Source of the DNA: a virus
Taxonomy: Duplodnaviria; Heunggongvirae; Uroviricota; Caudoviricetes
IMG/VR virus record: IMGVR_UViG_2713896791_000021
Direction: 5' to 3' (one strand)
Length of the DNA: 8,851 nucleotides
Position 1 is the first letter of the stretch, and the number at the start of each line of letters is the position of its first letter. The position numbers were made by a program, and so were the translations under genes. The notes beneath the pieces were generated by a model, which saw nothing but the letters and a program-made list of their open reading frames with translations, was not told the DNA's origin and ran no database searches. Shown here piece after piece: positions 20-8,574 of the stretch.

Positions 20-1300
20 TTAACTTTTCATCGCTTCGTTATGGGGCATGGTTGGGGCAAACTCGCTTAACTGTGTATTTAACAGCGTTACCTGCGCATT
101 ATTATTTTCTGACATCCATTTCCCGTACACCTGAAACACCATTTGCGCATCTGCATGGCCCATCTGGTTTGCAATGAATGCCGGGTTAGCTCCTGCTGTT
201 AACGACCAGCAGGCATAAGTGTGTCTCGACTGATACGATTTGCGATGGCGGATTCCGGCACGCTTTACCGCTGCGTCCCACATCTGCCTTATTGAGTCAA
301 CGGTAAAATGGTCACCATAATTTTTTACTTTCGCTGACACTTCAGGTTGAAAAACAAAGGTACATTTTTGTTTCTCTGTTCTGCCGAATTCTCTGAGGTG
401 AACATCGATGATATGCTCTTTGCTCAGTCTCGTTAGTGCCATCTGACTCCGGAGAGCGTCGATTGCGGGATTAATAAGGTGAATCACACGATTGGTTCCC
501 GCCTGTGTTTTTGGTACTGTAAAACGGTCTTTTGCCAGATTTCTTCTGATTATCATTGTTCCATTTTTCAGATCTATATCTTCCCATCCAAGCGCACACA
601 GTTCACCAGGGCGAATCCCAGTATAAACGGAAACACACCATAAATTTTTGGCTTGCTGATTTCTGCACGCGTCAATAAGGCGGATAAACTCCTCCCGCGA
701 AAGTGGATCCGGGATGGTTCTCGACTCCTTTAATGGTGAGATCCCCTTAAATGGATTGTTTGCCAGATAACCGTTATCAACACCAAACTGGAACACGGCG
801 TAAAGATTTGTCATGTAATTATTTACGGTAACAGCCGATCTCCCTGGTTGTGTAACAATATAGTTACTTTTGGGGATCTGGTATCCAGTCAGTAACTCTT
901 TACGTACCGCCAGCAATTTTTCTTTATTAATCGATGATGCAAGATTTTTTTCACCGATTATGCTCAGAATATTTTTGATGACGGCACGGTACGTGTTGAG
1001 TGACGTTTTTGCGACTTCAGTTTCTTTCAGTGCCAGAAATTTTTCAGCCAGTTCTTTTATGGTTAAATCTTGTCGGGCCTCACCAAATTTTTCCAGATTG
1101 TGTGAGGCGGGAAACTGTTTTGCATAGTCGAAAGCGCCAGTTTTTATTGCGTAACAAACAGAGGCGCGTAGCTCACCTGCAATGCGCCTGTTTTTTGCTG
1201 TGTCAGGAACCCCAAGATTTTCCCGGACTCTTACACCTTTATAAACAAACCAGATACGTAATTTCCCTCCATGGTTTTCCACGCCTGTCGGATATTTCAT
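20..1300 (-). CDS. int: Phage tyrosine integrase (lambda-family site-specific recombinase)
   Basis: ORF 20..1315 (-), 431 aa. N-terminal arm-binding-like segment (MKYPTGVENHGGKLRIWFVYKGVRVRE); catalytic-domain residues in the expected order (R in VYTGIRPGE, H/R in QSRHTYACW, H in GHAD, nucleophile Y in QVYGKW). Start placed at the second ATG (1298-1300, preceded by GAGAGAAG); the first ATG at 1313-1315 has no SD-like sequence, so the 5' end is uncertain by 15 nt. Confidence 0.9.
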   Translation of the reverse strand: MKYPTGVENHGGKLRIWFVYKGVRVRENLGVPDTAKNRRIAGELRASVCYAIKTGAFDYAKQFPASHNLEKFGEARQDLTIKELAEKFLALKETEVAKTSLNTYRAVIKNILSIIGEKNLASSINKEKLLAVRKELLTGYQIPKSNYIVTQPGRSAVTVNNYMTNLYAVFQFGVDNGYLANNPFKGISPLKESRTIPDPLSREEFIRLIDACRNQQAKNLWCVSVYTGIRPGELCALGWEDIDLKNGTMIIRRNLAKDRFTVPKTQAGTNRVIHLINPAIDALRSQMALTRLSKEHIIDVHLREFGRTEKQKCTFVFQPEVSAKVKNYGDHFTVDSIRQMWDAAVKRAGIRHRKSYQSRHTYACWSLTAGANPAFIANQMGHADAQMVFQVYGKWMSENNNAQVTLLNTQLSEFAPTMPHNEAMKS

Positions 1301-1334
1301 TTCAGCTTCTCTCATTGGTTCGTGTTGCTTTTAG

Positions 1335-1586
1335 TCAAGCAAGATGACGTCTTGGTCTTGCAGATGCCTGGCGCTCAATCCAGCGATCAATTTCTTCCAG
1401 GTTGTAAAAGCATGGACTGTTATCCCATGGCATACCGTCATGAGCGACATGCTTATATTCCCTTCCTTCCATAAACGATTTTTCCCTGGCTTTTTTTAGC
1501 GTTCCCTTTTTGATTCCTTTAAGTGCAATTAACTGCTCTTCGGATACCCATTTGCCAGGAGAGACGATCATGATTACTTCGCTCAT
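1335..1586 (-). CDS. xis: Excisionase (Xis-like, winged-helix DNA-binding protein)
   Basis: ORF 1335..1658 (-). The 83-aa core from ATG 1584-1586 (MSEVIMIVSPGKW...GTLKKAREKSFMEGREYKHV...) has the size and pattern of lambdoid excisionases and sits immediately upstream of int on the same strand. The ORF's first ATG (1656-1658) overlaps the upstream stop as TAATG, so a 107-aa form is also possible. Confidence 0.7.
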   Translation of the reverse strand: MSEVIMIVSPGKWVSEEQLIALKGIKKGTLKKAREKSFMEGREYKHVAHDGMPWDNSPCFYNLEEIDRWIERQASARPRRHLA

Positions 1587-1657: not shown

Positions 1658-4075
1658 TTAAAAATCAGCCTGACTCGGGATCAGTTTTTTCCAGATAGCT
1701 GAAACGTATTTTGCCTGATAACGGGCGTCATCAAGTGCATTATGGCGCTCACCTTCGAATGGGATAGCAGTTCTGACATCGAAGTCTATGGCTTTCCCCA
1801 GCTCAACGATTGTGCGTACATCGCGATCGTTGTAGTAACGCCACGGGCAGGGGATCCCCTGCCGTTCGTATGAACGGCGCAAAATCGTGTTGTCGAAGTT
1901 GGCTCCATTTCCCCAGACCTGAACAAAAAATTCACCGGAGTTTTCGTCGATAAATTCCCGCAATTGTAACAGTGCATCATCTAACGGGATTTCATCGGTC
2001 ATAATGGCAGATTGCGCTTCGCGTGATTGCTTAAGCCACCATTTAATGGTGTCCCGATCAATGACTCCGCCAGCAGTTTCCAGATCGATAGTCTTACTAA
2101 ATTCCGGTCCCATATCTCCGGTTTGCGGATCGAAAAATATTGCACCTATTGAGATAATCGGGGCATCAGGATTTTTTCCCATGGTTTTAAGGTCGATCAT
2201 TAGATGGTCACACGTCCTGCTGGTGGATGTGATAACGTGATGACCGTTCACCGTAATTAAGGGATTTGCTGTCTCGCCTGTTTCATTATTGCCATTGGCA
2301 TGTTGATCGCCTTCGGTGCATTGCTTATTCGGGAGCACGGCATTTTCCATTTCCTCCGGATTTTTTTTCCGGGCTTCATCCTGGCTTTCTTCGTTGAATG
2401 TCTCTTGGTAGGTTGCGTCACCCATTACCGCTCCACAATCAGGGCAGTTGCCGCCATCGGTCTGACCACATGTGGTGCAAACTTTTTCTGGTTCTTGTTG
2501 CACTACTGGTTCAGGTTGTTTTGTTTTTGGCTCGTTTTGTAACGCATTTGGGCTGTTTTGTTCCGCTTTATCCTGATTCTGGTCATCATCATCGCGACTC
2601 TGGATCCCCTTCACCCATTTTGGATCATTCGGGTCGCTAATCCCTTCAACAAATTCTCCTCGAGAAGCAGCCAGTAATTTATCTGCATCGACAGGATTTT
2701 TGGGTGGAATGTTTTTCTTGGCTTCATGGAGTTCTGCACGCAGTTTCTGATATTTCGCATCAACAGAATTTATCTGTGGCTGAGCATCCATCGACTGCGT
2801 GTCCTGATTATGTTCAGTTGTATCCGGTTCCACTGCTTCAGTCGTTGCCTGTTCATCTGCCATTGCGCCAGATGGCTGCGGTTTTTCTTCATCATCCTGT
2901 TTTCCTTCTTTTGTTACACGCTGCGGCATCGGGGCAGAGGAGCGACCACAGGCAATATCCACGATTTCCGGATCAGGGGTGGCATGATCGGTTTCAGTCA
3001 GCACCTTATTCAGGTATTCGGTGACACGGTGGGGAGTAGCCTCTATACCAATTGGTGCTTCTTTCACGGACGCAACCACGATGGCGCGGGAGTAATCCTT
3101 GTGGCCCGGCATGGTGATGAATTTGCTGAAAAACACAGAAAATGGCGGTTTATTTTCAGCGATAATTTCCTCAATGCGTTTAGCGTGCGCGGGATGAAGG
3201 TTATAAATATCCACGTCCATTGAACGGGCCAGTACGCCAGTGGCTACGTCACGCGCCACTGACGCATCATCGTGGACAAAACCTTCGCCGCGATCGGTAA
3301 GAATGCCGCCGCCAGCGTTAGCGCCGGATGGCGTGCGGCTGATGCGTGAAACACGATTTCCTTTCATCCACTCTTTTGTAAGCAGACCGCGATCGGTGTA
3401 GTCAGCGCCCAGGTATGCTTCGATAAAAGAGGTCATCAGTCCCAGGTCCGAATTTACGGGGGCGGGGAAAACTTTGTCAGTGTCTCGCACCAGTTTGTAC
3501 AAATCCCGAAGCTCCAGCGGTTCGAGTTGCACTGCTTTATTTGAGATGGCCAGCGCGGTAACGGCGGGAAGTTTTTCATCCTGTGCGTTATGTAATGCGC
3601 GCAGTTTGTCCAGTGAAACGTGCGTGAGCGGTTTTTCGCTGTTGTGTTGCGCCAGCCAGCGAACAGGCAGAATCTGACCTGAAACCGGAAGAAGCATATT
3701 CTCCTCAATCTTAGCCATGTCTTCGCCGTTGACGTTGGTATTGTCAGTACTGGCTGGTTTGTCCGGAACAGAGGGCGCGATAAGTATCATTGTGATACCA
3801 TCTTCTCCGCCTTTTTCGTATCGGTTGCAGAATTCAGTATCAAACACACCTTCCGGTGGAAGGTCATTCACAACGGGTAAATGGACGCGGATGGGTTTTT
3901 TAAAATCCTCTTCGTCAAATCCGGCATCGTCCATTGCAGCAACACCACGTGATATTGCAACCGATAATTTTTTTGCTGTGCGCCAGTAAAAACCACCTTT
4001 AATCCCAAGGCGTTTTCTGACTTTGTCATTTTTGGCTTCGTAATATAGTGCAATTTCTTCTTTATCAGCGTTCAT
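1658..4075 (-). CDS. YdfE/RecE-like large prophage protein with C-terminal DEDDh-type 3'-5' exonuclease domain (Rv2179c-like) and an internal CxxC...CxxC zinc-ribbon motif
   Basis: 805-aa ORF with GAGG 7 nt upstream of ATG 4073-4075. The N-terminal ~400 aa resemble, from memory, the non-catalytic N-terminal part of Rac RecE / Qin YdfE. A central acidic, Q/P-rich low-complexity linker follows. [15 protein letters not shown] is a C-x2-C-x7-C-x2-C knuckle. The C-terminus (...[24 protein letters not shown]...GANFDNTIL...[10 protein letters not shown]) matches the Exo I/II/III layout of DnaQ-like exonucleases. Confidence 0.85.
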
Positions 4076-4167: not shown

Positions 4168-4356
4168 TTATCCAGCCGGTGTTTCGTTATTCAGGTACAG
4201 CGATACTTTTTTTAACGGGAGGCATTCACCGGGGATTTTTTGTTCGTCCCTTACCTGAATGCAGGATGACTTACTGTAATAAATTCCGGTAATCACATTC
4301 TGCGGCTCACCCGTTATAAGAAAAACGGTCATTATCAGTGCAAACGCTGAAGTCAC
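4168..4356 (-). CDS. ydfD: YdfD-like small prophage protein (Qin ydfD family, reported lysis-related)
   Basis: 62-aa ORF directly downstream of dicB. GTG start (4354-4356) overlaps the dicB stop as GTGA, with GGAG 7 nt upstream; this 4-bp overlap and the gene size match what I recall for K-12 dicB-ydfD. An alternative ATG lies at 4330-4332. Confidence 0.55.
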   Translation of the reverse strand: MTSAFALIMTVFLITGEPQNVITGIYYSKSSCIQVRDEQKIPGECLPLKKVSLYLNNETPAG

Positions 4357-4541
4357 TGCTGTTCTCCGATAATACCAAGTTCAAGAAGGGCAATTCTGGA
4401 AAGTATGGAATTATCATTAAGAAGATAAGGTTCATATTTTCTCATCTTAATGGCATCTTCAGTAAACTCCCGGTTACTGAGCAGAACTCCAATATCAAAA
4501 CAACCTTCAGACGTATTAACGTTTGGTAATAACGTTTCCAT
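4353..4541 (-). CDS. dicB: Cell-division inhibitor DicB (MinC-dependent FtsZ-ring inhibitor)
   Basis: 62-aa product METLLPNVNTSEGCFDIGVLLSNREFTEDAIKMRKYEPYLLNDNSILSRIALLELGIIGEQQ closely resembles K-12 DicB (recalled) and lies downstream of dicF in the expected operon order. The track ORF 4353..4661 extends artificially upstream through the N-run; the true start is ATG 4539-4541. Confidence 0.85.
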   Translation of the reverse strand: METLLPNVNTSEGCFDIGVLLSNREFTEDAIKMRKYEPYLLNDNSILSRIALLELGIIGEQQ

Positions 4542-4550
4542 TATCGCGTC

Positions 4551-4590
4551 NNNNNNNNNNNNNNNNNNNNNNNNNNNNNNNNNNNNNNNN
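4551..4590. other. Assembly gap (run of 40 N)
   Basis: 40 consecutive N characters. The flanks are the 3' side of dicF and the 5' end of dicB, so the true length of the dicF-dicB spacer is unknown. Confidence 0.99.
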
Positions 4591-4607
4591 NNNNNNNNNN
4601 TCACAAA

Positions 4608-4664
4608 ATTCACTTTAAAAAGGGCGGCAGAGCAGTCACGGAGTAAAACTGATACCGCCAAATG
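4608..4664 (-). ncRNA. dicF: DicF small regulatory RNA (Hfq-dependent sRNA targeting ftsZ and other mRNAs)
   Basis: Minus-strand sequence UUUCUGGUGACAUUUGGCGGUAUCAGUUUUACUCCGUGACUGCUCUGCCGCCCUUUUU matches my recollection of DicF at all but about one position. It ends in a GC-rich stem (GGCGG...GCCGCC) plus U-run intrinsic terminator and sits between ydfC and dicB as in Qin. Confidence 0.8.
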
Positions 4665-4926
4665 TCACCAGAAAATTGATAACAGAGGGCGTTGTAGCGG
4701 GGTTGTCACTTAAGTGTATGGTCAACCTGACAACCCGGTGCATTTTCTGGAGCAATGGAGGAAACCCCAGCCATACTTACCGCCGCGCCATTTCGCGGAC
4801 TGCCACAACCGGAAGCGCACGGTCGACGAAAATTTAACGACAGGCTATCTATGAACCAGCTACCTCGCCGTACGCTTTCGCGTTGTGTGCCTGCTTTTAA
4901 CCACGTCAGGCGAGGTGGTTCCTGTT

Positions 4927-5099: not shown

Positions 5100-5444
5100 A
5101 TGCTTTCAAAACTTACGTCTGTTCAGTTTGAATGCGTATCGCTCATTGAGATGGTGCGCTCTTATCAGGAAGAAGCCGCATCTCTCAAAGCAAAAATTGC
5201 AGAGATAGAAGACTTTCAGCAACAGGCGGAAGGTTACAAACTTAACAAGCTTGATTCTGGAACTCTTGTGTATTCCAAGAAGCAATTTATAGGCGATACC
5301 GAGATAACAGTGCATCTTTGCCCACAATGTTTTGGAAAAAAGGTAATATCTGTACTGCAACCAATGGAAATAATGCGCTTTGATGCTCATTTTCGTACTT
5401 TTTGCCCCGCTTGCAATAATAAGTTCTGGATGAACTCAAGATAA
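5100..5444 (+). CDS. Hypothetical 114-aa protein, N-terminal coiled-coil plus C-terminal C4 zinc ribbon (CPQC...x17...CPAC); no recognised family
   Basis: ORF on the strand opposite to the dicB operon. Visibly AT-rich with many ATA/CTT/AAA codons compared with its neighbours. The antisense frames are aromatic/hydrophobic junk, while this frame is protein-like (EEAASLKAKIAEIEDFQQQAEG; HLCPQCFGKK...FCPACNNKFW). No convincing SD before ATG 5100. Confidence 0.35.
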   Translation: MLSKLTSVQFECVSLIEMVRSYQEEAASLKAKIAEIEDFQQQAEGYKLNKLDSGTLVYSKKQFIGDTEITVHLCPQCFGKKVISVLQPMEIMRFDAHFRTFCPACNNKFWMNSR

Positions 5445-5559: not shown

Positions 5560-5799
5560 TTATCCTCGTTGGTTAGCTATTAACGCGGGTATGTAATCAT
5601 TCTGGCAATGCTTAATGCCGCTGCTTTTTCCAAATTGGTGATATCCTGCTCCAGAGCGGACAGATTTTTCAGCCTGCTTAGCCCTGGCTTCATTGGCCCA
5701 TTTCAGATCCTGCGCTGCATTAATTTTCTGGCGCATCCACTCATAAAGTTCATCATCGGTATAGTCTGGCGCGATGATGACGGGTTCTCGTTTATGCAT
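5560..5799 (-). CDS. ydfC: YdfC-like small prophage protein (dicB operon)
   Basis: 79-aa ORF with GAGGAA 5 nt upstream of ATG 5797-5799, in the position of ydfC between ydfB and dicF. Family assignment is by operon position plus vague sequence recollection. Confidence 0.65.
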   Translation of the reverse strand: MHKREPVIIAPDYTDDELYEWMRQKINAAQDLKWANEARAKQAEKSVRSGAGYHQFGKSSGIKHCQNDYIPALIANQRG

Positions 5800-6799: not shown

Positions 6800-7027
6800 A
6801 TGTTGAAAATTGATGCTATAGCGTTTTTTGGCAGCAAAACAAAGCTTGCCAATGCCGCAGGAGTTAGGTTGGCAAGCATTGCTGCATGGGGGGAACTGGT
6901 TCCTGAAGGTCGCGCGATGCGCCTGCAAGAGGCATCCGGCGGGGAACTTCAGTACGACCCCAAAGTTTATGACGAATATCGTAAGGCAAAGCGGGCGGGG
7001 CGGTTGAACAATGAAAATCACCCCTGA
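6800..7027 (+). CDS. dicC: Cro-like regulator DicC
   Basis: 75-aa product MLKIDAIAFFGSKTKLANAAGVRLASIAAWGELVPEGRAMRLQEASGGELQYDPKVYDEYRKAKRAGRLNNENHP resembles K-12 DicC (recalled). Strong SD AAGGAG 6 nt upstream; divergent from dicA. Confidence 0.85.
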   Translation: MLKIDAIAFFGSKTKLANAAGVRLASIAAWGELVPEGRAMRLQEASGGELQYDPKVYDEYRKAKRAGRLNNENHP

Positions 7028-7562
7028 ACAGGTTTGTGAGGCTCTGGATGCCTGGGTATGTCGACCAGGAATGACACAGGAGCAGGCGACGATATTAATC
7101 ACGGAAGCATTCTGGGCTCTGAAAGAACGCCCGAACATCGATGTTCAACGCGTCACGTTTAATGATGGCGAGGTTGATCAACGGGCGCTGGGCGTTAACC
7201 GGGTGAAGATATTCGAACGCTGGAAAGCTATCGACACCAGGGATAAGCGGGAAAAATTCACGGCGCTGATTCCGGCAATTATGGAGGCTATCCGAATTAG
7301 TGATTTCAGGTTGTATCGTGAGATCAGTGATGGAAAAAGCATTACGTACATGATCGCCGGATTAAACAAAGAATATGGCGATGTGGTGGAGTCCGGGCTG
7401 CTTTTTGCGGATCCAGCTGTTGTGGAACGTGAGACTGACGAGCTTATAGAAAAAGCTATTGCTTTCAAGCATGCGTATCGTCAGCAATATCAATATTACT
7501 TTGCAGATAAACAAATATCTGCCAGGGGTTCGTATGAGTATCGATGCACTACGATGGGCTAA
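7011..7562 (+). CDS. YdaT-like protein (Rac YdaT family; proposed CII-like regulator, also reported as toxic on overexpression)
   Basis: 183-aa ORF directly after the cro-like gene. The motif RWKAIDTRDKREKFTALIPAIMEAIRISDFRL parallels recalled Rac YdaT (RWLKGETKTQREKIQKLIPAILAILPRELRHRL). Overlaps dicC by 17 nt and the next gene by 29 nt. Confidence 0.7.
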   Translation: MKITPEQVCEALDAWVCRPGMTQEQATILITEAFWALKERPNIDVQRVTFNDGEVDQRALGVNRVKIFERWKAIDTRDKREKFTALIPAIMEAIRISDFRLYREISDGKSITYMIAGLNKEYGDVVESGLLFADPAVVERETDELIEKAIAFKHAYRQQYQYYFADKQISARGSYEYRCTTMG

Positions 7563-8574
7563 AAAGGTGAAAACCGGCAGTTCATCCAGTAAGTCTGTAT
7601 TGACCTGGCTTGCTGATATGTGCGGTGCCGATTTGTGTGCATACCCGTCTGTATCTGCACTGGCAGAAGTAACGGAACTGAACAAAAAGACTGTGCAGGA
7701 CAGCTTACGACACCTGATGGAGATTGGGTTAATTGTTGATACCGGTGAGAGAAAAGGCAGAACAAAGCAAATTGTGGTGTACCGACTTATCGGTGTAGAA
7801 GAAAGTGTTGCCGAGCCTGAATACACCCAAAAACGGGTGTCTTTAAAGGTGGGTAAAATTGGTGCTGTTAATAAAAACAGTACCGAAAACGGTTATGTTT
7901 CAGCACAAAAGAGCCCCAAAAACGGAACTCTTTGTTGCATGGAAAATAACCAAAGACACCCAAATTTTCCATCAAAGACACCCAAAAACGGATCACGGAA
8001 CCCAAAGGAACCCAAAGATCTAAACCCCACACATAACGCACGCGAGAGTGCTCCGACCAGTGAGCAGGAAGTTTTGTCGTTACAGGCAGTCCCCCCTGTA
8101 TTCCTGGATGGCCTGAGCGAACCCATCGGAAAATTTCCGATGACCGATAACTGGTATCCGTCACGGGATTTTCGACGACGGGCTGCGTTGTGGGGGATGG
8201 CTTTGCCGGAGACAGAATTCACACCTGCTGAACTTGCCGCATTCCGGGACTACTGGGCAGCGGAGGGGAAAGTGTTTACGCAGGTTCAGTGGGAGCAGAA
8301 ATTCGCCCGTCACGTAAATCACGTCAGGGCGCAGGTTAAACCAGTCAGCAAGGGGGTAAACCATGCAGCAGCACCAGGTGGAACCGCATCACGGGCAGTT
8401 CAGGAAATTCGGGCAGCACGTGAGCAATGGGAACGTGAAAACGGATTTATCAGCGACGGAAACGGCCTGGAAGCTGTGGGAGCTCATGGGGGAGGTTTAT
8501 TCGAACCGCTGGACCCAGAAGAACGGGGCCGCACCTTCGAAGCTCTGGATTGCACAGATTGGCGCGATGACTGA
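7534..8574 (+). CDS. Replication initiator, O-like (N-terminal HTH DNA-binding domain, iteron-encoding linker, C-terminal DnaT-like domain); 3' end as sequenced is probably extended by a frameshift
   Basis: Track ORF 7459..8574; start set at ATG 7534-7536 (MSIDALRWAKK...) with AGGGG 5 nt upstream. N-terminal HTH (SVSALAEVTELNKKTVQDSLRHLMEIGLI); low-complexity K/N/P linker encoded by iteron-like repeats; C-terminal segment FPMTDNWYPSRDFRRRAALWG...FTQVQWEQKFARHV. See the finding on the G5 run at 8352-8356 for the likely true end near 8359. Confidence 0.7.
   Translation: MSIDALRWAKKVKTGSSSSKSVLTWLADMCGADLCAYPSVSALAEVTELNKKTVQDSLRHLMEIGLIVDTGERKGRTKQIVVYRLIGVEESVAEPEYTQKRVSLKVGKIGAVNKNSTENGYVSAQKSPKNGTLCCMENNQRHPNFPSKTPKNGSRNPKEPKDLNPTHNARESAPTSEQEVLSLQAVPPVFLDGLSEPIGKFPMTDNWYPSRDFRRRAALWGMALPETEFTPAELAAFRDYWAAEGKVFTQVQWEQKFARHVNHVRAQVKPVSKGVNHAAAPGGTASRAVQEIRAAREQWERENGFISDGNGLEAVGAHGGGLFEPLDPEERGRTFEALDCTDWRDD
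7914..8017 (+). repeat. Iteron-like direct repeats inside the O-like gene (putative phage replication origin)
   Basis: CCCAAA core at 7915, 7958, 7981, 8001 and 8011. CCCAAAAACGGA occurs twice (7915-7926, 7981-7992), CAAAGACACCCAAA twice (7951-7964, 7973-7986), and GAACCCAAAG is tandem (7998-8007, 8008-8017). Related CCGAAAACGG at 7883-7892. Position inside the initiator gene mirrors lambda ori within O. Confidence 0.5.

Follow-up and report, generated by a model that had tools for sequence, protein, structure and literature searches.

What becomes of the RecE head when it is joined to a nuclease of opposite polarity and parted from its annealase? The question is raised by an 8,851-nt stretch of Caudoviricetes DNA (IMG/VR record IMGVR_UViG_2713896791_000021; hereafter the window), which carries on its minus strand an open reading frame (ORF) at positions 1658-4075 for an exonuclease of 805 aa plus stop. 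The N-terminal 600 residues of RecE have stood as 'of unknown function' for decades, and full-length RecE is a standard cloning tool. In nature, its head has repeatedly been joined to a nuclease of opposite polarity, with the annealase dropped. On the domain and sequence matches described here, the gene of the window is a mosaic that belongs to the RecE family of lambdoid prophage genes: the RecE nuclease end and the adjacent recT have been replaced by a DEDDh domain of the DexA/Rv2179c type, while head, linker and zinc knuckle are kept. It can be described as a domain-swapped variant of two known modules that is widespread, annotated and unstudied in function, and that is probably nuclease-dead in this copy. 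An initial annotation, made from the sequence alone, had proposed much of this architecture; it was largely right about the structure but wrong about rarity and intactness.

The ORF starts with ATG and its boundaries are identical to those of RefSeq WP_000990639.1, annotated 'exonuclease' or '3'-5' exonuclease'; it also matches PHROG 607 / 2082 'exonuclease'. BLASTP aligns residues 58-607 with residues 50-591 of K-12 Rac RecE, a segment in which PF06630, the acidic linker and the CxxC-x7-CxxC knuckle all lie. Residues 1-57 are unlike RecE, and past residue 607 no BLASTP similarity to it is found. The swap junction, at about residue 607, lies exactly at the start of the crystallised nuclease domain of RecE. 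The RecE equivalog of NCBIfam, PRK09709, covers residues 1-608 only (model positions 1-603 of 877), and its score of 1021.9 bits lies under the equivalog cut-off of 1269. K-12 RecE continues with a PD-(D/E)XK 5'-3' nuclease (PF12684, residues 615-850), whereas the 805-aa protein has no PF12684 match and ends in a DEDDh domain.

This domain is identified by several lines of evidence. PF16473 (Rv2179c/DexA-like) matches residues 624-795 with E = 1.2e-65 and 221 bits against a gathering cut-off of 27, spanning model positions 2-177 of 177. The AlphaFold2 model of the C-terminal domain reaches a predicted local distance difference test score (pLDDT) of 80-93. Foldseek ranks T4 DexA as its best match (2e-11), with RNase T, oligoribonuclease (Orn) and REXO2 at 1e-6 to 1e-7 and Cap18 also recovered, all of which are DEDDh folds. 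T4 DexA (8KEL, 8KEN) is likewise the sole solved structure found by sequence, with a phmmer E-value of 4e-6 against the PDB. A C-terminal PD-(D/E)XK nuclease was considered and rejected, as none was found by Pfam, BLAST or fold search. Pfam, BLASTP and Foldseek thus agree with the initial annotation on a RecE-type N-terminus followed by a linker, a zinc knuckle and a DEDDh 3'-5' exonuclease fold.

The 'DEDDh-type' designation stands for the fold, yet the motif itself is incomplete. Its residues are D628, K630 (normally E), D728, H778 and D783, so that four of the five catalytic residues are kept, and Exo I reads MIDLKTMG. The position of K630 corresponds to E9 in DexA and E14 in DnaQ. In DEDD enzymes, the Exo I glutamate coordinates the catalytic metals (DnaQ D12/E14). 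The same catalytic residue set, including this glutamate, is given for DexA (PMC12153337). The full set of five, with an Asp-Glu pair in Exo I, a single Asp in Exo II and a His-Asp pair in Exo III, is not present in the 805-aa protein. Glutamate occupies the Exo I position in 94 of the 96 homologues that have the motif, and the exact 91-mer with the K630 codon occurs in 26 of 3695 matching records.

The state of the surrounding prophage bears on the same point. The window matches the Qin-site prophage (adjoining rspB) of E. coli O103:H2 strain 12009 and its relatives. In this closest complete genome (NC_013353.1, about 1785700-1810034) the prophage is a remnant of ~24 kb that has no morphogenesis (head or tail) genes and whose lysis genes are cut by IS3. 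The exonuclease genes of the window and of strain 12009 differ by a single base in codon 679 (2039-2041), which reads TGG (W, invariant in the family) in the window and CGG (R) in strain 12009 and close relatives. The strain behind the window is therefore a slightly different one, and a second damaging change is borne by the reference allele. Since K630 replaces the Exo I glutamate and the nearest prophage is a remnant, the protein of this copy is most likely catalytically dead, whether it is a copy in decay or one retained for a role that needs no nuclease activity. The simplest reading is that of an inactive enzyme whose prophage is decaying. The gene, described as intact in the initial annotation, is so at the level of the ORF, but neither its catalytic site nor its nearest prophage is.

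The N-terminal two thirds of the protein are RecE in character. The head folds confidently in AlphaFold2 when diverse representatives are supplied, in three predicted subdomains (about residues 1-103, 115-245 and 255-360); an earlier full-length model on a shallow alignment had left it below pLDDT 50 and was uninformative. PF06630 (Exonuc_VIII) covers residues 56-187 with 2e-24 and 87 bits against a cut-off of 25. The tip that precedes the start of the RecE match at residue 58 is modelled at pLDDT 82-98. Fold searches with the head model returned no structural relative, and BFVD gave no significant match; as modelled, the head is a confidently folded unit without structural relatives. The linker contains short helices at residues 437-454 and 464-471. 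Over its residues 371-620 the net charge is -23 and D+E make up 19%; these residues show almost no secondary structure and low pLDDT in the full-length model, where the alignment is shallow. Both the knuckle and the acidic linker had been listed in the initial annotation as parts of the architecture; K-12 RecE has both (its knuckle reads CNACGQTGGDNCPDC), and on this comparison they are inherited RecE features and not novelties.

The gene also occupies the same slot as recE in the lambdoid early-left operon, upstream of xis and int. As had been noted, these two genes follow it directly, the annotated xis start lying 71 nt past the exonuclease stop codon, with int thereafter. Unlike Rac, the locus lacks recT, ralR and rcbA, and unlike RecET and other SynExo pairs it has no adjacent gene for a single-strand annealing protein. 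Scans with Pfam, PHROG and NCBIfam detected no annealase family (RecT, Red-beta, Erf, Rad52-like, Sak4) in any ORF of the window, and the annotation of the near-identical genome lists none anywhere in its prophage, so that the initial annotation had overlooked no annealase. The genes dicB, DUF1482 (ydfD-like) and exonuclease form a conserved cassette, which is found ahead of three differing integrase modules (at rspB, potC and tRNA-Ser) and also in the induced phage vB_EcoS-640R1; at none of these loci does an annealase gene stand beside it. The classical RecET (SynExo) mechanism is excluded because there is neither a PD-(D/E)XK nuclease nor a recT or other annealase gene. The proposal of a role other than RecET holds to this extent, but its extension to a role outside recombination reaches beyond the evidence, as phage mEp235 illustrates below. 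A scan for promoters and terminators gave nothing bearing on the exonuclease gene above shuffled expectation.

The exchange of the nuclease end is part of a wider pattern. Of 79 long representatives with this head in common, 13 carry the DEDDh domain, 20 the RecE nuclease and 46, as judged by phmmer, neither of them. In one representative (P0311, 703 aa), the PF06630 region is fused directly to the RecT domain PF03837 without a nuclease domain, which by its domain order is a further rearrangement of the RecE head. The fusion architecture of the window gene is carried by 13 clusters below 50% identity, and the homologue of vB_EcoS-640R1 is intact with the full DEDDh set. Compared with the O55:H7 allele, the whole gene has a synonymous divergence (Ks) of 0.18 and a ratio of nonsynonymous to synonymous divergence (Ka/Ks) of 0.21. 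Its parts differ widely: Ks is 0.004 in the head (residues 58-370; 5 differences, so that Ka/Ks is not meaningful) and 0.73 in the DEDDh domain (621-805; Ka/Ks 0.107), and Ka/Ks is 0.29 in residues 371-620. This comparison shows mosaicism and purifying selection. Because the architecture spans the 13 divergent clusters and the domain is under purifying selection, it is old and maintained.

Nor is the DEDDh form an oddity. Of 5426 complete E. coli genomes, 4064 contain DNA of the domain, in up to 7 copies each, against 1736 for the RecE nuclease region, which makes the DEDDh form the commoner one and is at odds with the rarity implied by the initial annotation. About three of every four complete E. 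coli genomes have the fusion gene, often in multiple copies, and all major lineages of enterohaemorrhagic E. coli are among them.

The relation to K-12 Qin requires some care. There, ydfE and intQ are pseudogenes at the same chromosomal site adjoining rspB, in the gene order dicB, ydfD, exonuclease-position gene and int, so that the equivalents are indeed remnants, as the initial annotation stated. Homology of the N-terminus of the 805-aa protein to the surviving K-12 YdfE fragment, in contrast, was rejected (BLASTP E = 1.8), and the description of this N-terminus as 'YdfE-like' fails for that fragment. The first ~240 residues of the two proteins are unrelated, and the IS2-cut K-12 fragment keeps only that unrelated head. 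The link exists only via full-length YdfE-type proteins, from residue 243 onwards: YdfE shares 66% identity with the head of an E. albertii protein (P0189, 807 aa), which in turn matches the 805-aa protein at 51% identity over everything from residue 243 to the C-terminus, knuckle and DEDDh domain included. By these two matches, K-12 ydfE is the IS2-truncated head of a sister variant.

Table 1. Coordinates of the exonuclease gene, its parts and its neighbours in the window, with the basis of each assignment.
Position	Strand	Feature	Basis
1658..4075	-	Exonuclease gene: RecE-type N-terminal region and DEDDh exonuclease domain, complete coding sequence, 805 aa	ORF, Pfam, NCBIfam, RefSeq, PHROG
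3905..4075	-	Residues 1-57: N-terminal tip unlike K-12 RecE, part of folded subdomain 1	BLASTP, AlphaFold2
2993..4075	-	Residues 1-361: RecE-type head, function unassigned, three predicted subdomains	AlphaFold2, Pfam
2255..3904	-	Residues 58-607: 72% identical to K-12 RecE residues 50-591	BLASTP
2216..2992	-	Residues 362-620: acidic linker rich in Q/N/P, probably disordered for the most part, common to RecE	Composition, AlphaFold2
2435..2479	-	Residues 533-547: CxxC-x7-CxxC zinc-knuckle motif	Sequence; kept in RecE and sister variants
1691..2206	-	Residues 624-795: DEDDh (DnaQ-like, PF16473 Rv2179c/DexA-like) 3'-5' exonuclease domain	Pfam, phmmer, Foldseek
2186..2188	-	Codon AAA (K630) in place of the Exo I metal-binding glutamate (DexA E9, DnaQ E14)	Alignment
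1335..1586	-	Excisionase xis (DUF1233 family, PF06806), downstream of the exonuclease gene	Pfam, PHROG, reference annotation
20..1315	-	Tyrosine integrase int (Arm-DNA-bind_2 and PF00589 Phage_integrase)	Pfam, PHROG, reference annotation
4168..4541	-	dicB (4353-4541) and DUF1482 / ydfD-like gene (4168-4356)	Domain search, reference annotation

As an overall explanation, we consider it on balance probable that this is a mosaic RecE-family gene, that its family trims 3' ends and that the present copy is dead. In the family as a whole, head and linker would tether or target a 3' end-trimming DNA exonuclease, whose 3'-5' polarity on DNA we infer from homology to T4 DexA and to its E. coli homologue EcD. 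Such a polarity would yield 5' overhangs or blunted ends and not the 3' tails that an annealase requires; that no annealase accompanies the gene may be explained by the fact that a 3'-5' nuclease does not make 3' tails. Recombination would then be left to the host RecBCD/RecA, as in lambdoid phages without a Rec module. DexA is a 3'-5' DNA exonuclease with reported roles in double-strand-break repair and intron homing (PMC12153337). Beyond the shared fold, the two proteins differ: DexA, with 227 aa and additional loops, stands alone in a virulent phage and has only ~27% identity to the domain, whereas here the domain forms the end of a protein of 805 aa and has Lys in place of the Exo I Glu.

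A genomic survey lends this explanation a context. DnaQ-like 3'-5' nucleases have been described in lambdoid Rec modules (epsilon34) in a Genome Research 2025 survey, as have sporadic DnaQ-type nuclease genes outside these modules and 'very near int', the same position as that of the exonuclease gene here (PMC12315714). According to the same work, lambdoid phages without Rec modules are Chi-rich and rely on host RecBCD (PMC12315714). In this prophage, six Chi sites lie on one strand within 16 kb and group in the nin/Q region, which as a raw count from a partial remnant agrees with the 'no Rec module, Chi-rich' class. A literature search on ydfE together with exonuclease, and on Rv2179c together with phage, returned no description of a fusion between RecE head and DEDDh domain. 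The phrase 'largely uncharacterised' therefore suits the fusion but not its relatives, namely DexA and EcD (PMC12153337) and the DnaQ genes near int (PMC12315714).

As a separate observation on Chi, the sites in the prophage locus of the near-identical genome are at positions 12562, 23225, 23351, 23409, 25372 and 25574, counted along that locus, and the exonuclease gene of the window itself contains one Chi octamer (GCTGGTGG) at 2219-2226 (+).

Several points weigh against the explanation that we prefer. Rv2179c, the namesake of the PF16473 family, is an RNase, and for this reason the substrate of the fused family could be RNA. In mEp235, a standalone homologue with 59% identity to the DEDDh domain lies between SSB and Abc2, with a Rad52-like annealase gene just upstream of SSB; given this context, a recombination role would be conceivable for the fused protein too. 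The nucleases of mEp235 and epsilon34 are, however, ~180-aa standalone genes flanked by Rad52-like annealase, SSB and Abc2, whereas the domain is fused to a RecE head in the 805-aa protein and these three partners are absent. The Chi count is a raw one and stems from a partial remnant. Moreover, the RecE head is without an assigned function (PMC11611040), and its 'targeting' is something that we only infer.

The lysine itself speaks against part of the explanation, as the K630 domain is found in two differing linker backbones and a second lineage shows a similar loss. The latter is represented by P0337 (752 aa), a divergent homologue with the same fusion of RecE head and DEDDh domain, in which the domain is 61% identical, Exo I also has K, and Exo II reads FAN instead of FDN through a change of Asp to Ala. 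By its motifs, P0337 is a second apparently nuclease-dead lineage. Because the lysine recurs in two backbones and in the P0337 lineage, recurrent K630 fits retained nuclease-dead forms better than simple recent decay.

A different role is suggested by EcD ('HREX'), the standalone E. coli DexA homologue, which is reported to digest DNA containing 5-hydroxymethylcytosine (5hmC) and to protect against T4 (PMC12153337). By analogy, the gene could encode a prophage defence nuclease, in which the DEDDh domain would degrade superinfecting phage DNA from 3' ends and the RecE head would provide the targeting, so that phages with modified cytosine would be hit especially. In order to compare the two proteins, the EcD sequence was rebuilt from the primers of PMC12153337 via IMG/VR loci. 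The product is a close proxy: it has 189 aa, begins with MIDTET, carries A78 in agreement with the paper, and fits the reverse primer at its 3' end save one base. This rebuilt EcD belongs to PF16473 as well, is 37% identical over the whole DEDDh domain (E 2e-36), and shares its MID-x-ET start, in which the lysine stands for the glutamate here. Mobile elements also encode DEDDh exonucleases with auxiliary domains that can protect against phages, sometimes nuclease-independently (PMC13344964), and the gene is very widespread in prophages.

The residues linked to the EcD phenotype, however, are not those of the window protein. These are the tetramer-forming Asp (DexA D90), lost in EcD, and a Trp and an acidic residue (DexA W152 and D169) for which 5hmC recognition has been proposed (PMC12153337). 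At the D90 position EcD has Ala78 and the 805-aa protein D700, a mapping that is approximate at 27-37% identity; at the W152 position EcD has Trp, while Y748 is aromatic but not Trp; and D169 falls in a DexA loop that is absent from the 805-aa protein. EcD further lacks a RecE head and retains the catalytic Glu, which this allele does not have. The gene sits in the repressed early-left operon and not beside the repressor, where exclusion genes are usually located. A known defence system was rejected, since PADLOC 2.0 has no model that matches the exonuclease or the three neighbouring small ORFs. Altogether, a defence role appears unlikely to us.

The nuclease could also be secondary, with head, linker and knuckle as the functional unit (for example in binding DNA ends or host proteins), so that a nuclease-dead copy would still work. 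The head occurs with PD-(D/E)XK, DEDDh, RecT or no nuclease, and 'RecE-2' proteins without a nuclease domain have been noted elsewhere (PMC12315714); the 46 of 79 representatives with neither nuclease point the same way, although many of them may be truncated gene calls or fragments. Full-length RecE, unlike the nuclease domain alone, boosts linear-linear recombination (reviewed in PMC11611040). The confident predicted fold of the head and the recurrence of K at Exo I in two lineages and two backbones are consistent with such a role as well. On the other side, purifying selection acts more strongly on the DEDDh domain than on the linker (see the Ka/Ks values above), almost all homologues keep the glutamate, and the head has no fold relative that would hint at a binding function. 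We hold this second possibility to be improbable too, to a similar degree.

We further speculate that head, linker and knuckle might constitute a self-contained module of new fold that recruits interchangeable effectors (5'-3' PD-(D/E)XK, 3'-5' DEDDh, RecT, or none) to DNA ends or a host repair complex. Dead DEDDh versions, such as the K630 allele and the P0337 lineage, would then be retained for non-catalytic action; they might cap or sequester 3' ends, and thereby modulate host RecBCD/RecA or block superinfecting phage. This is a doubtful proposition, slightly more so than the two preceding ones. That the protein is a working nuclease of phage recombination or replication despite K630, trimming 3' flaps or ends in host RecA/RecBCD recombination as DexA does in T4, is very unlikely: standalone homologues in the Rec modules of mEp235 and epsilon34 (PMC12315714), the reported roles of DexA (PMC12153337) and the full DEDDh set in the induced phage vB_EcoS-640R1 would favour it, but the Glu-to-Lys charge reversal at the metal-coordinating Exo I site is expected to abolish catalysis, and the prophage is defective.

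Returning to the mosaic RecE-family gene with a dead nuclease, the locus itself is of small importance, as an annotated gene for a probably inactive enzyme in a defective prophage. The more interesting question concerns the role of the orphan-fold RecE head, which belongs to RecE biology generally. E630 and K630 would represent a natural pair of active and dead alleles, and together with the fusion family this pair offers a concrete handle on what the RecE head does.

The window holds further features as well. The DicF small RNA (Rfam RF00039, 77 bits) is encoded at 4622-4673 (-), upstream of dicB, and the order DicF, dicB and DUF1482 (ydfD-like) matches the dicBF operon of K-12 Qin. Between DicF and dicB, a run of 50 N occupies 4551-4600, where strain 12009 has a spacer of 144 nt of ordinary sequence; since the mask is shorter than this spacer, the window is shortened relative to the genome. 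On the opposite strand, a 114-aa ORF at 5100-5444 (+) with two CxxC pairs (CPQC, CPAC) matches PHROG 1244 (unknown function) and gave no match in Pfam, NCBIfam or PADLOC; it sits within the early-left operon at the position of Rac sieB. The ydfC-like ORF at 5560-5799 (-) matches PHROG 1744 over positions 1-44 of 68 only, and the reference annotates ydfC as frameshifted at this spot. Further on, a gene of the YdaT family, CII-like, at 7011-7562 (+) overlaps the start of a 371-aa protein (region 7011-8574), which has a DnaT-like ssDNA-binding domain and lies at the annotated replication-initiator position, beside replication protein P in the reference. Finally, the 24-kb remnant in NC_013353.1 also carries an nleG7 pseudogene, paa and hokD.

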